Position numbers and translations under genes: made by a program | Notes under the pieces: model-generated | Told to the model about the DNA's origin: nothing | Databases searched by the model: none | What the model saw: only the letters and a program-made list of their open reading frames with translations | Virus record (IMG/VR): IMGVR_UViG_3300045988_021117 | Span: 1 to 6,255 of that record | Length of the DNA: 6,255 nucleotides | Reading direction: 5' to 3' (one strand) | Origin: a virus | Part shown: piece after piece, positions 3,195-6,255 of the stretch | Layout: each line of letters begins with the position of its first letter | How positions within the stretch are numbered: position 1 is the stretch's first letter

Positions 3195-3236
3195 AACATT
3201 TAAAATTTTAATTATACATGTTTTTTAAAGACAAAG

Positions 3237-3269
3237 CAAAGTTACATATAAATACTTGAGAAAAACAAA
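3237..3269 (-). promoter_or_regulatory. Candidate Bacteroides-type promoter (-33 TTTG, -7 TAnnTTTG) driving the minus-strand gene circle
   Basis: Minus strand reads ATTTG(3270..3266)-21 nt-TAACTTTG(3244..3237). This matches the published Bacteroides consensus of -33 TTTG and -7 TAnnTTTG with a spacing of about 19-21 nt. It lies about 43 nt upstream of the ATG at 3194. The background is A/T-rich, so a chance match is possible. Confidence 0.3.
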
Positions 3270-3310
3270 TATCAACGTAAATATTAACATTAATAAACAA
3301 TAAGCTATAT

Positions 3311-3602
3311 GGGTGGCAGGCTGGTCTGTGAGTTTGCGTATATAAGACAAGAGGAGACTGAAAGCGATGAGGTAAATCGCTTTCCCTTCGGGCAAACTCA
3401 TGTAGACTTCGTCAATTTATATTTTAGGTGTTTAGCGGCGACGGAAAAGAAGAGATTAGAGGGAGATTGCTTACGCGTTGCAAGCGTCAAGCTTCAAGGA
3501 AGGCAGTACTATAGCCTAACGGCTCTGATTCCAGTCGACGAGGTCTCCCGGAATTCAGGGGAATGTATAACCACGCTACGCGCGGTTGCCAGAAGTTACT
3601 CC
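3311..3602. other. GC-rich, highly self-complementary non-coding island; candidate ssDNA complementary-strand origin or structured RNA
   Basis: By hand count, 3311..3640 has about 165 of 330 G+C, against about 19 of 110 for 3201..3310. Verified helices: 3329-3337/3392-3400 (TGAGTTTGC/GCAAACTCA); 3360-3368/3376-3384 (GAAAGCGAT/ATCGCTTTC); C(TTCG)G at 3386-3391; 3469-3476/3484-3492 with bulged C3488; AGCC-taac-GGCT at 3513-3524; 3461-3466/3544-3549 (GGGAGA/TCTCCC); 3569-3576/3580-3587. There is no minus-strand ORF here. Confidence 0.55.
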
Positions 3603-3639
3603 AAGCAACAAAACCCGGCGCGTATCACTACGAACCGGG
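3603..3639 (-). terminator. Candidate intrinsic terminator downstream of VP2
   Basis: The minus-sense RNA reads CCCGG-uu-CGUA-GUGA-UACG-cg-CCGGG (3639..3614) followed by UUUUGUUGCUU (3613..3603). That is a 5 bp plus 4 bp stem capped by a GNRA tetraloop and then a U-rich tract. It starts 31 nt after the VP2 stop. In the plus sense no U-tract follows the hairpin. Confidence 0.5.
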
Positions 3640-3669
3640 CTAGAAGAAAAACGAAAAGAAGTACGAACA

Positions 3670-4758
3670 TTAACGACCAGAGCGAATAACTCTATGAGGT
3701 AAGAAATTTCCTATAGTATTACCAATACTAGTTCCATAATCTACCCATTTATCAGAGTCAAAGTATTTATGCTTTTTCTTTTCATTTCTAGAACGATACC
3801 ATTCCTCAATGTTCCTACTGCGAGCATTATCCTGGGGAAGACCAAGTCTAAGTTCTTCCTTATGATAAGCCGCGGAAGACTCATTAGCTGCAATATTGGC
3901 AGAAATTTGAGACTCAGCAATACGAGAAGCAACTTCATTAGAAATATTCTGACCACGAGCACGAGCAGCAGCCAAAGCTTCTTCAGCCAAAGATTTTTTA
4001 GCTTCAGCATAAGAAAGATATCCAGAAGACATGCGCTGGTAATAATCCGCAGCCTTAACATTTAGGTCAAACTGTTGTTGTTGGTCAAGATACTTATTCA
4101 TAATACCTTTAGCCTCATTATCGAGAAGCATACCAGAACGTTGAGCACGCATAATGAGACCAGTCATTGCCATGTTATCAACTTCCTGTTGTTCCTTAGC
4201 ATAACCAAGCTGAGCACGAGCTAGTCCAGTAGACTTCAAATAATTACGAGTGTCTTCAGTAAGTTTTCCCCAATCAATATTAGAAAGAGTTTCCATCGCC
4301 TTAGCATCAGCAAGCTGTCGAGCACCTTGCAATTGAGACTTTTCAGATTGCATCAACTCGTATTGGAAAACATTACCAATGGAAGAACCTATACCAGAAT
4401 AATCAGCCTGAAAAGGTTGCATAACAGCATTTCCAGAAGAAGAAGCTGTAGCGCCAGTACCGGCAGACTGAGCAACACCAGCAGAACCTCCATTCAGCAT
4501 TAAATAAGGATTTAAACCAGCCTCTTCGAGACGTTGACGTTGGGCAGAAGCAGTGTTATAAGAATTTTCTTTATTCCACATATTTTCTTGCCAGTTACGC
4601 TGCTGTATAGCCATACGTTCGTTGAACTGGTTATTCATCTGATTAATTTTGTAGTTCATCTGGTTGGTCTCCCGGACACTTTGGCTGTTCTGCGAATTTT
4701 GAATTGCAGAAGAACCAAGACCAAAGAGACCACCAGCAATTGAACCAAGAAGACCCAT
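3670..4758 (-). CDS. VP2: Minor capsid / DNA pilot protein VP2 (phiX174 H-like), 362 aa
   Basis: Track ORF. It has a Gly-rich hydrophobic N-terminus (MGLLGSIAGGLFGLGSS). This is followed by NQFNERMAIQQRNWQENMWNKENSYNTASAQRQRLEEAGLNPYLM, which matches the conserved VP2 block (FN..A...R.W...M....YN.P.AQ..R...AGLNP) as I recall it. The remainder is Ala/Gln-rich and predicted helical. Its ATG overlaps the stop of the upstream ORF as TAATG at 4760..4756. Confidence 0.88.
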   Translation of the reverse strand: MGLLGSIAGGLFGLGSSAIQNSQNSQSVRETNQMNYKINQMNNQFNERMAIQQRNWQENMWNKENSYNTASAQRQRLEEAGLNPYLMLNGGSAGVAQSAGTGATASSSGNAVMQPFQADYSGIGSSIGNVFQYELMQSEKSQLQGARQLADAKAMETLSNIDWGKLTEDTRNYLKSTGLARAQLGYAKEQQEVDNMAMTGLIMRAQRSGMLLDNEAKGIMNKYLDQQQQFDLNVKAADYYQRMSSGYLSYAEAKKSLAEEALAAARARGQNISNEVASRIAESQISANIAANESSAAYHKEELRLGLPQDNARSRNIEEWYRSRNEKKKHKYFDSDKWVDYGTSIGNTIGNFLPHRVIRSGR

Positions 4759-5240
4759 TATTCAGAGGAAGCAGTATCGGCGGAAGCAGCGGCCGCTTTT
4801 TCTGCTTCTTGTTTAGCAGTTTCATCATCAATCAAATCCTGTGCCTGAGCTTCAAGATTTTCAGCATAAGCCGACAATTCCTTAGACCAAGCAATAATCT
4901 CAGAAGGAGCCTGAATATGCCGAGAACGAACCGTTGCCAAAAGGTCATCGTCAGACATCTTATCCATAACCTGTTGAATCTGGGAAGCGGACTGTCCTCT
5001 CTGTCCGAACTTAGAAGCAACAGAAAGACCAGCACGGGAAGCCAAATCCTTGGTATGAAGAATCAAACGAATATCAGAAGTGTAACGCACCGGGCAAGTT
5101 TTTTCGTTATCATAAATTTCAACACGGAGCTGTTCGGTAGAATCAAACTCAGGAGCAACTGCAAAATCATCAGGCTCAACATTGGGAATAAGTCCAAAAC
5201 CTTGTTCAAGACTATCCAAATTATTAAATTTTCCAATCAT
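4758..5240 (-). CDS. Hypothetical acidic protein, 160 aa; possible internal scaffolding protein (VP3-like)
   Basis: Track ORF lying between VP1 and VP2 and coupled to VP2 by a 1-nt overlap. It has an acidic, Ala/Glu-rich C-terminal tail. The block VRSRHIQAPSEIIAW resembles what I remember of gokushovirus VP3 scaffolds, but I cannot verify that. Coding status is much more certain than function. Confidence 0.65.
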   Translation of the reverse strand: MIGKFNNLDSLEQGFGLIPNVEPDDFAVAPEFDSTEQLRVEIYDNEKTCPVRYTSDIRLILHTKDLASRAGLSVASKFGQRGQSASQIQQVMDKMSDDDLLATVRSRHIQAPSEIIAWSKELSAYAENLEAQAQDLIDDETAKQEAEKAAAASADTASSE

Positions 5241-5252
5241 AATAAAAAAGAT

Positions 5253-6255
5253 TTAATAAGGTACACCATCACGAGACAAATTACGGGCAACATAGCAACC
5301 AATATAGGAATTAATCAATAATTGGTCAGTATCCCAGGTAGAATCCGCGTGAACACCAAAAATCGGGTCAAGAACAGAGGGATTAACCTTGAAGAACTTG
5401 TAATTCAAAACAACCTTGGTATTCTTATCGGCATCACCTTCTTGATAACCAAAGCCAAACCATCCGGAAAGGAGAGATTCAGTAACAGGAGAAACCCAAG
5501 ATTTAAGAGTAGTAGTAAACGCACCATTAACAACATCAAGTTTTGTCTTCCAGTTAAAATAACGAGGATTATATCCAGCATTAAACAAATTAACAATAGA
5601 AGCTTTCGGAGAGTTGAAAATTTGTGTCATAGGAAGAACTTCCATACCAATATTATCAAACTCCGGAATTGGGAGAGATTCAGCGTCAGTTACCAGTAAC
5701 TGTCCATCTTGACCAGTAATTGTATAGTCAAGTAAAGGAACGGCATGATAAATACACATAACGACACAATGCTCGTCAGTGGTATAAGTAAATGAGCCAT
5801 TACCAGCACCAACACCTTTACCAGCAATCACAGCGGTATCACCATCACCAGCAAGATTATTGTTAACAACTTCGCTAATATCAAGATTACGAGAGATACC
5901 ACCAATATAAGTGCACATATTGGAAAGAGCTTGAGGCAAGTTGACGCCAAAATGCTTACGAATCTGCTCACGATAATCAGAATCACCGGACTGACTGATT
6001 TCTTTCCAACGCTGAAGAGCCTCGGCCTGGCGAAGAGCAAGAACCGTAAACTCAGAAGCAATATCCTTGACATTAACAGAAAGGGTAGAACCAGCTTTTA
6101 TCGTTTCACCAGAAGCCAAATGAACACCAATAGGAGAAGTAGCAATACCAGTAGACATGACAGTAGCCGTAGCAACAGGATGCAGAACACCTTTAGTATC
6201 AGCAACATTAACACTGGCACCTTCAGTAGGAAGGTCAATTACAGCGACATCACCA
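5253..6255 (-). CDS. VP1: Major capsid protein VP1, C-terminal part (unique sequence 5253..6200; 6201..6255 duplicates 1..55)
   Basis: Track ORF 5253..6158 begins at an internal Met. The same frame stays open to the window end; hand translation of 6200..6159 gives DTKGVLHPVATATV, then MSTGIATS... Both 903 and 6200-6158=42 are multiples of 3, so 903..1 joins 6200..5253 in frame. The total is 1851 nt, or 616 aa plus stop. Confidence 0.92.
   Translation of the reverse strand, partial: GDVAVIDLPTEGASVNVADTKGVLHPVATATVMSTGIATSPIGVHLASGETIKAGSTLSVNVKDIASEFTVLALRQAEALQRWKEISQSGDSDYREQIRKHFGVNLPQALSNMCTYIGGISRNLDISEVVNNNLAGDGDTAVIAGKGVGAGNGSFTYTTDEHCVVMCIYHAVPLLDYTITGQDGQLLVTDAESLPIPEFDNIGMEVLPMTQIFNSPKASIVNLFNAGYNPRYFNWKTKLDVVNGAFTTTLKSWVSPVTESLLSGWFGFGYQEGDADKNTKVVLNYKFFKVNPSVLDPIFGVHADSTWDTDQLLINSYIGCYVARNLSRDGVPY
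6201..6255. repeat. Terminal direct repeat, copy 2 (identical to 1..55)
   Basis: Exact 55-nt identity with 1..55, seen directly in the sequence. Confidence 0.95.

Follow-up and report, generated by a model that had tools for sequence, protein, structure and literature searches.

A folded single-stranded DNA element, probably a single-strand origin, in an intergenic island of gut microviruses

Single-stranded DNA (ssDNA) phages such as phiX174 and the Ff group (M13) start complementary-strand synthesis at intergenic hairpins on the packaged strand: the n'/PriA site of phiX174 is a single hairpin of ~55 nt acting via PriA, and the Ff minus origin is an intergenic hairpin that mimics a sigma-70 promoter. 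The primase-dependent origins of G4, St-1, alpha3 and phiK (Microviridae, Bullavirinae) are GC-rich intergenic islands of stable hairpins on the viral strand, in which primase lays a primer from a defined start (CTG in Escherichia coli) beside hairpin I on DNA coated with single-strand binding protein (SSB). Plasmid single-strand origins (ssoA, ssoU) and ssi signals (ssiA of RSF1010) are also folded ssDNA, strand- and orientation-specific, and the single-strand origins of rolling-circle plasmids are cassettes that can be swapped among replicons with unrelated Rep proteins. Here we describe a GC-rich hairpin island in the circular microvirus genome of IMG/VR record IMGVR_UViG_3300045988_021117, analyzed over its full 6,255 nucleotides (hereafter, the window). 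The evidence indicates that this island is probably the reverse complement of a cis-acting folded ssDNA element located on the T-rich, presumably packaged strand, whose most likely role is that of a single-strand origin for complementary-strand synthesis.

In principle the island would, on balance, belong with the origins of the G4/ssi type, having in common with the G4 group stable hairpins in a GC-rich intergenic stretch of the viral strand and a C-G-closed mini-hairpin with a G...A loop (CGGCGAAAGCCG in G4 and GCGTTAGC in St-1 and alpha3; CCGTTAGG, GCGTAGC and CCGAAGG in the window). Unlike those origins, to which it has no sequence kinship, it is much larger (190-330 nt with 6-8 hairpins and four mini-hairpins, versus ~140 nt with three hairpins and one mini-hairpin), it is modular and horizontally exchanged between lineages, and its host is probably a member of the Bacteroidota rather than Escherichia. 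Strand and orientation specificity relate it to the plasmid signals, and CCGAAGG of ssiA is identical to the tip motif of the window; the portability of its core also seems, by comparison, to match the behavior of plasmid single-strand origins. Unlike the case of ssoA, no plasmid homologue of the element was found. The CS-6 hexamer of ssoA, TAGCGT, is present at hairpin Z of the window, yet it is not a conserved match because its first base, T, is a loop base that varies freely. Conserved intergenic hairpins with compensatory substitutions have been proposed, though not certified, as negative-strand initiation sites in reekeekee- and roodoodooviruses (PMC9865509). These differ from the present element in being one or two in number, short and unrelated in sequence, and in being put forward with neither a strand-polarity argument nor a mini-hairpin signature.

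All long open reading frames (ORFs) of the window, whose bases 1-55 recur at 6201-6255, are held by the minus strand, and the island lies inside its longest gap without a gene-strand ORF (3195-3669). As the initial annotation had remarked, GC content jumps at position 3311, from 0.173 (3201-3310) to 0.500 (3311-3640), that is from 17.3% to 50.0%, the remaining genome having 0.39. The whole structured element, as delimited by an nhmmer profile, GC content and covariation, spans 3311-3605 on the minus (gene, T-rich) strand and consists of domain 1, a linker and a core; coordinates of all parts run along the plus strand, and the element reads on the minus strand. In alignments of relatives domain 1 occupies 3322-3413. 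It contains a three-way fold (3329-3400) formed by helices H1 (3329-3337/3392-3400) and H2 (3360-3368/3376-3384) and a tip mini-hairpin, CCCGAAGGG (3384-3392), together with mini-hairpin M (3405-3413), with the sequence GAC-GAA-GTC in the window and, in most relatives, GGC-GAA-GCC (containing GCGAAGC). An AT-rich linker (3414-3426 in the same alignments) joins domain 1 to the core (3427-3605). The 5' half of the core (3427-3512 in plus-strand numbering) is variable and holds hairpin W (3469-3492) plus a segment that in relatives is purine-rich or forms a GGAGAG/CTCTCC hairpin. The 3' module X-Y-Z (3513-3605, Z flanks included) is constant and comprises hairpin X (3513-3524; AGCC-GTTA-GGCT on the minus strand), hairpin Y (3525-3534/3548-3558), which keeps a bulged T and varies in its interior, and a near-invariant block (3562-3605) made up of hairpin Z (3569-3587) and its single-stranded flanks. 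On the minus strand Z reads AACCGCGC-GNA-GCGTGGTT, which contains GCGTAGC, and a conserved CTG lies 3' of it; CTG is the start of E. coli primase and may not be that of the phage's host. Beyond the element lies hairpin T (3614-3639; 3606-3639 with its T-run), followed by TTTTGTTG on the gene strand.

Evidence for the fold comes from covariation in two sets of relatives. The first consisted of 82 distinct full elements, with shuffles (500) and slid partners as controls; 97.8% of the cells are paired, compared to 27-42% with slid partners, and 15 pairs are compensatory versus 6.2 in shuffles, none of the 500 shuffles scoring as high. The view taken at the outset that structure here exceeds chance is thus borne out. 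The two nested perfect 9-bp helices of the initial annotation, which correspond to H1 and H2, are present and 99.5% and 98.9% paired, with a change from G-C to U-A at pair 3366/3378 of H2 in 34 of the 82. Compensatory changes occur at M pairs 3406/3412 and 3407/3411 (26 and 11 of 82, respectively) and at four pairs of hairpin T (95.9% paired), and W is 93% paired with variation on one side. For the second set, a covariance model of the 3' module aligned 63 copies, belonging to all four types of core (A-D, see below), over their full length. In these, 12 of 20 pairs are compensatory versus 5.4 in shuffles, with a covariation score of 0.22 versus 0.09. All four pairs of X covary across types (AGCC/GGCT, ATGC/GCAT, GAGTC/GACTC, GAAC/GTTC), Y has U-A in 43 and C-G in 17 copies at pair 3531/3551 and five compensatory changes at pair 3534/3548, and Z switches from C-G to U-A at pair 3574/3582. 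An independent RNAalifold consensus finds X, Y and Z again and lengthens Y by two pairs; a consensus of the whole element with divergent sequences included collapsed from misalignment and was replaced by runs per subset. In sum, hairpins H1, H2, M, X, Y, Z and T all have the support of covariation. A mutual-information scan mainly picked up two alternative haplotypes of the Y interior, not base pairs.

The hairpins originally listed at 3469-3492 (bulged), 3513-3524 (AGCC-TAAC-GGCT) and 3569-3587 (AACCaCGC-TAC-GCGcGGTT) are all present. Of the proposed GGGAGA/TCTCCC closure only GGGA/TCCC is conserved, with no covariation, and 3548 and 3549 pair instead with 3534 and 3533 in Y. The alternative partner suggested for the same box, GGAGAC at 3353-3358, keeps Watson-Crick pairing in only 31-34% of relatives, and the two G-U pairs said to extend H1 are uninformative, since they never vary. 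An outer helix GTCT/AGAC and a pairing GTTGC/GCAAC were unsupported as well, as judged in part by eye. Hairpin Y, mini-hairpin M, the hairpin with its T-run (3639-3606, gene strand) and a plus-strand ORF (3309-3689) had been overlooked. Single-sequence folding gave z-scores of -2.9 (plus) and -3.3 (minus) with RNA parameters and -1.75 (plus) and -2.64 (minus) with DNA parameters; the real sequence is ahead of its shuffles, but modestly so and on either strand, so folding energy alone decides nothing.

The strand that folds is the minus (gene) strand, as given by the wobble pairs of Z and Y, the balance of sense-specific pairs and the hairpin loops. The initial annotation had considered the structure specific to the plus sense, a claim that these strand signals reverse. 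At pair 3573/3583 of Z, 117 of 117 sequences have a G.T wobble on the minus strand where the plus strand has an A.C mismatch, and pair 3533/3549 of Y is G.U in 60 of 63, again in the minus sense only, with an A.C mismatch in the other. Over the helices as a whole, the minus sense alone pairs 244 cells and the plus sense alone 35 (G.T versus A.C), and the paired fraction is 97.8% in the minus sense versus 93.5% in the plus sense. W contributes 78 G.T cells in the minus sense versus 18 A.C, and two pairs of hairpin T are G.U in 31-32 of 82, in the gene-strand sense only. Seen in the minus sense, Z, M, the tip and X all have a G-N-A or G-N-N-A loop closed by C-G and with a free middle base; the plus sense gives T-N-C or T-N-N-C. 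These features are recurrent among relatives: the loop is GNA in 57 of 59 for Z (GTA 31, GAA 23, GGA 3), GAA in 81 of 82 for M, GNA in 76 of 82 for the tip (GAA 53, GTA 12, GGA 11), and G...A in most of the 59 copies of X (GTTA 15, GAA 15, GTA 9, GTCA 7, GCCA 3). When the 335-nt island was scanned for C-[GNA/GNNA]-G, the plus sense had no occurrence and the minus sense four: GCGTAGC (Z), CCGTTAGG (X), CCGAAGG (tip) and ACGAAGT (M). The mean in shuffles was 0.11, and 0 of 2000 reached four. The UUCG unit pointed out earlier, CCCTTCGGG (3384-3392), does exist, but its plus-sense reading gives way to a better one as CCGAAGG on the other strand.

Mini-hairpins of this class have been characterized in other settings. 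DNA hairpins d(GCGNAGC) and GCGNNAGC are extraordinarily stable and far less stable as RNA, and GCGNAGC, GCGNNAGC and CCGAAGG bind SSB poorly (PMC13037366, a 2026 review). Such DNA occurs at the primer sites of the complementary-strand origins of G4 (GCGAAAGC) and of St-1 and alpha3 (GCGTTAGC), and also in ssiA (CCGAAGG) and in the single-stranded promoters of N4 (PMC13037366). As a positive control, the same scan picks up CGGCGAAAGCCG at positions 3975-3986 of G4, within the annotated primer (3970-3997). The G4 origin is itself a GC-rich intergenic island, with a GC content of 0.59-0.61 versus 0.34-0.45 in its flanks. The viral strand of phiX174 (L185) has only two such motifs, one of which, CCCCGAAGGGG (4331-4341), lies 25 nt downstream of the annotated viral-strand origin (4306).

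The island was found in more than 130 independent microvirus assemblies, which rules out a chimeric misassembly, the artefact that might have explained it away. BLAST matches in GenBank are exclusively gut and faecal microviruses; BLAST and pattern scans located the island in at least 57 IMG/VR contigs, and it is present in 77 metagenome contigs, mostly human-gut circles of ~6.2 kb. The nhmmer profile recovered the element at full length in ~100 microvirus contigs. Every relative with a Rep of at least 73% identity whose contig covers the region carries it, and across the clade of the window it is single-copy, fixed and at the same site; no empty sites were found among GenBank phages, and a Rep-based search for the locus brought back the same clade only. 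No match was found in plasmids, and 185,579 bacterial and archaeal species genomes scanned with exact patterns gave none, or five (L191-L195) that we discarded as chance matches to the Z pattern, scoring 15-20 bits with the covariance model versus 48-128 bits for true members. The Z pattern (23-28 nt) matches bacterial and environmental sequences by chance. Also discarded were L124, L126 and L143, in which the matching stretch reads, by eye, as coding sequence (VFNHASRG, presumably from an alpha-amylase), and L070, a chance match in a GC-rich viral contig of 128 kb. Eight contigs longer than one genome (L055, L078, L093, L099, L119, L129, L131, L138) are concatemers, inverted duplications or chimeras of microvirus genomes (two inverted copies in L129, two direct copies in L078 and L099), most likely products of amplification or assembly; as candidate prophages they were rejected, since none displayed a phage integrated in a host chromosome.

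Within this distribution the element evolves through module swapping. The 5' half of the core exists in at least four unrelated versions and is replaced wholesale in types B, C and D (L027, L045, L063, L008 and others), and the linker is the site of insertions of 50-200 nt in L003, L023, L025, L061, L069 and L071; that of L003, the only one read, adds GC-rich hairpins such as GTCGCAAGCGAC. Microvirus lineages that are otherwise unalignable exchange the core as a module: Z and its flanks share 97.6% identity with Dulem virus 262, and mar45 and mar40 match the core at 74% identity, with no other nucleotide sequence alignable to the window in either case. Z with its flanks is conserved as sequence, and X and Y as structure alone. 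Core-only copies have neither domain 1 nor hairpin T. Domain 1 and the 5' half of the core would be lineage-specific accessories and X-Y-Z (3513-3605) the essential core.

In mar45, mar40 and seven metagenomic relatives the core occurs alone, directly after the Rep stop codon, and inverted with respect to the genes. Taken alone, this inversion argues against a strand-specific ssDNA element. Nucleotide composition, however, flips too: in these mar45-like carriers A makes up 56-66% and T 9-12% of coding-strand four-fold sites, versus 50-67% T and 11-13% A in the lineage of the window. In phiX174 and G4, whose viral strand is known, the same sites are 63% and 46% T, respectively. A T-bias at synonymous sites is a reported signature of ssDNA phages and has been attributed to deamination of C to T in single-stranded DNA (PMC3278643). 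In 144 of 144 genomes, 136 in one orientation and 8 in the other, the minus sense of the element lies on the T-rich strand; this figure counts genomes and not independent trials, because the polarity flip is a single event. The A-bias reaches relatives of mar45 that have no element, down to 38% capsid identity. The mar45-like clade (L006, L007, L037, L064, L097, L103, L123, L141, L146, L186-L189), which has more than 100 GenBank relatives by capsid similarity, shows 51-66% A and 6-18% T at coding-strand four-fold sites. Composition suggests, as the simplest reading, that the polarity of the element tracks the packaged strand and that the mar45-like clade packages the strand antisense to its genes. 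More tentatively, X-Y-Z might be a portable replication-polarity module, such that whichever strand bears its minus sense is converted and packaged, which in the mar45-like clade would be the anti-gene strand. Negative-sense members, if real, would be a novelty in this family, which has been described as positive-sense throughout, and literature searches found no report of negative-sense microviruses.

The genes around the island, all on the minus strand and named through the annotation of relatives, are Rep (928-2625), pilot (3670-4758), scaffold (4758-5240) and capsid (from 5253). Along the gene strand the order is pilot stop codon, hairpin T with TTTTGTTG, island and promoter. The promoter is of the Bacteroidota type, TTTG-N21-TAACTTTG (3237-3269), lies outside the element and before the block of small ORFs and Rep, and recurs, at a constant distance and as TTTG-N21-TAnnTTTG, in 101 of 116 distinct relatives. 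Its type suggests a Bacteroidota host, and the promoter also points to a separate transcription unit for the replication genes. Hairpin T and TTTTGTTG probably constitute the terminator of the capsid, scaffold and pilot genes and possibly also take part in the ssDNA fold; 'terminator' is our own label, since a consensus terminator scan did not call hairpin T, owing to its loop rule. The island therefore likely sits between a terminator and a promoter. A conserved AT-rich block (3283-3307; GCTTATTGTTTATTAATGTTAATAT on the minus strand) separates the island from the promoter, and a related sequence, TTAATGTTAA, is found on the gene strand of the inverted lineage. This block loosely resembles the XerD arm of dif and the spacer of the phiX174 origin, but a reading of T[AT]AATGTTAA as a site of either kind was dropped, as the motif is present in only 29 of the 116 relatives.

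A 126-aa ORF on the plus strand (3309-3689) spans the island exactly, starting right at the composition boundary and overlapping the 3' end of the pilot gene by 20 nt. It is disrupted by stops and frameshifts in the close relatives L001-L005, has no Pfam family, and its top PHROG match has E=0.23; we reject it as a gene, since its frame is not kept in relatives and it has no family, and regard it as spurious. It is a by-product of the GC-rich stretch, and its disruption in relatives marks the island as non-coding. Dulem virus 257, a GenBank relative, is annotated with a different hypothetical CDS across the island. An Rfam scan of the whole window by E-value returned no match within 3311-3600, and a scan for tRNA and tmRNA genes none in the island. 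A weak match to the Rfam L20_leader on the minus strand at 3601-3780 (E=0.13; 25 bits, far under the gathering score of 58.7) is owed to the hairpin and T-run and was taken as chance. Four 6-bp palindromes occur within ~85 nt: ACGCGT (3473-3478), AGTACT (3505-3510), GTCGAC (3535-3540) and GAATTC (3551-3556). The first of these is invariant in 82 of 82 full elements despite lying in the arm and loop of a hairpin with a variable partner strand, and the second lies within a conserved single-stranded stretch.

As a single-strand origin, the element would act as follows. Host SSB would coat the AT-rich viral strand upon entry, and the GC-rich hairpins capped by C-GNA-G or C-GNNA-G (tip, M, X and Z), together with Y and W, would remain folded and free of SSB. 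A host priming enzyme would then recognize the near-invariant Z and its single-stranded flanks and make a primer, which the replicative polymerase would extend to yield the double-stranded replicative form. Candidate enzymes are primase (as in G4), RNA polymerase (as in Ff phages and ssoA) and the PriA primosome (as in phiX174). A promoter-mimic hairpin for the Bacteroidota RNA polymerase was considered and set aside, since TGAGTTTG in H1 is one base off the -7 box and, by eye, there is no -33 box at the right spacing. A shared host factor would explain the invariance of the Z block better than Rep, because the two lineages share the block and have Rep proteins that are barely alignable (31% over 51 aa). 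A complementary-strand origin was among the three options offered initially and is the best supported of them, though on the strand opposite to the one then preferred; a plus-sense fold could not serve this genome in that role, because the gene strand is the T-rich and presumably packaged one.

Several observations weigh against a single-strand origin. A sequence similarity to any characterized origin was not found: the covariance model R1 has no match in G4 or phiX174, and no plasmid matches. At 190-330 nt the element exceeds known primase-type origins in size, and the priming enzyme and start site are putative. In both lineages the packaged strand is deduced from composition alone, and the polarity flip is phylogenetically one event. 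Single-sequence folding scores are modest and alike on both strands, and the domain 1 helices have no strand bias. Finally, wobble tolerance and G...A loops occur in RNA too, and in most genomes mRNA has the minus sense of the element.

Other explanations must account for the same data. The element could be, or include, the Rep-dependent viral-strand (rolling-circle) origin, with Rep binding Z and its flanks and nicking nearby and the core acting as a full replication module that sets the displaced and packaged strand. This is unlikely, although conservation of Z and its flanks as sequence next to X and Y as structure only is consistent with it, and the element flips along with the strand bias, as a nick site must; a single inversion of such a combined module would be the most economical polarity flip. 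The position of the inverted core next to the Rep stop codon, and the 25 nt between CCCCGAAGGGG and the viral-strand origin in phiX174, also fit. Yet the module is exchanged among lineages with different Reps, those of the two lineages being as divergent as noted above, the Z loop varies only at its middle base and so is not a conserved nick site, no convincing likeness to the 30-nt phiX174 origin is seen by eye, and the mini-hairpin of G4 marks the complementary-strand and not the viral-strand origin. A gene-sense RNA, that is, a structured part of mRNA that reads through from the pilot gene toward the next promoter (a barrier to 3' exonucleases, a processing site or a regulatory structure), would benefit from the minus sense being the mRNA sense in 136 of 144 genomes, from the G.U wobbles tolerated in that sense, from the terminator-like hairpin and T-run nearby and from the RNA fold z of -3.3. 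It appears quite unlikely given that the element lies downstream of the hairpin and T-run and upstream of the next promoter, that GNA triloops are reportedly much less stable in RNA than in DNA (PMC13037366) and that no Rfam family matches. Furthermore, in the inverted lineage the minus sense is antisense to all genes, with no conserved promoter for it in the three genomes scanned (one regular-expression match in L006, none in L007 and L037).

The strand initially preferred would call for an independent plus-sense structured RNA gene, antisense to the phage genes, and this is the least credible of the readings. In its favor are the C(UUCG)G unit and the two constant G.U pairs beside H1, an RNA fold z of -2.9, and conserved AT-rich sequence just upstream with a weak sigma-70-like match (3256-3285). 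Such matches, however, are no commoner than in shuffles, and a TTTG-N17-23-TAnnTTTG promoter pointing into the island in the plus sense occurs in 0 of 116 relatives, versus 101 with the promoter on the gene strand. In addition, the loops read TNC or TNNC in this sense, the A.C mismatches of Z and Y are near-invariant, 244 cells pair in the other sense only, no T-run follows the 3' hairpin, and Rfam has no family for it. It is very improbable, too, that the island is a passenger with no role for the phage (a selfish mobile element such as a MITE or PATE, or acquired cargo), a protein-coding gene or an assembly artefact. The cargo idea holds to the extent that the core is common to lineages with no other nucleotide similarity, that modules are swapped between types A-D and that some relatives have insertions beside the element. 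It fails in that the element is single-copy, fixed in the whole clade at one site, and absent from the bacterial and archaeal genomes and plasmids scanned, save for the five chance matches; inspection of the alignments by eye showed neither terminal repeats nor target duplications, no repeat search having been made. The 126-aa ORF that could speak for a coding gene is broken in relatives and has no family, and the number of independent assemblies speaks against an artefact.

Outside the phiX174/G4 group, conversion of the incoming strand of microviruses has had no defined cis element, earlier proposals consisting of one or two hairpins, and literature searches found no description of the element reported here. 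The single-strand origin reading would provide a family with a covariance model and ~130 members, with an assigned strand of folding and 3513-3605 as its minimal core, and predictions open to testing in gut phages that are abundant and whose hosts are probably Bacteroidota, and the element may be of use as a single-strand origin for ssDNA vectors in that phylum. It also suggests that the packaged strand may be called from sequence only, by combining the polarity of the mini-hairpins with the bias at synonymous sites, and that one clade of the family may run opposite to the textbook polarity rule.

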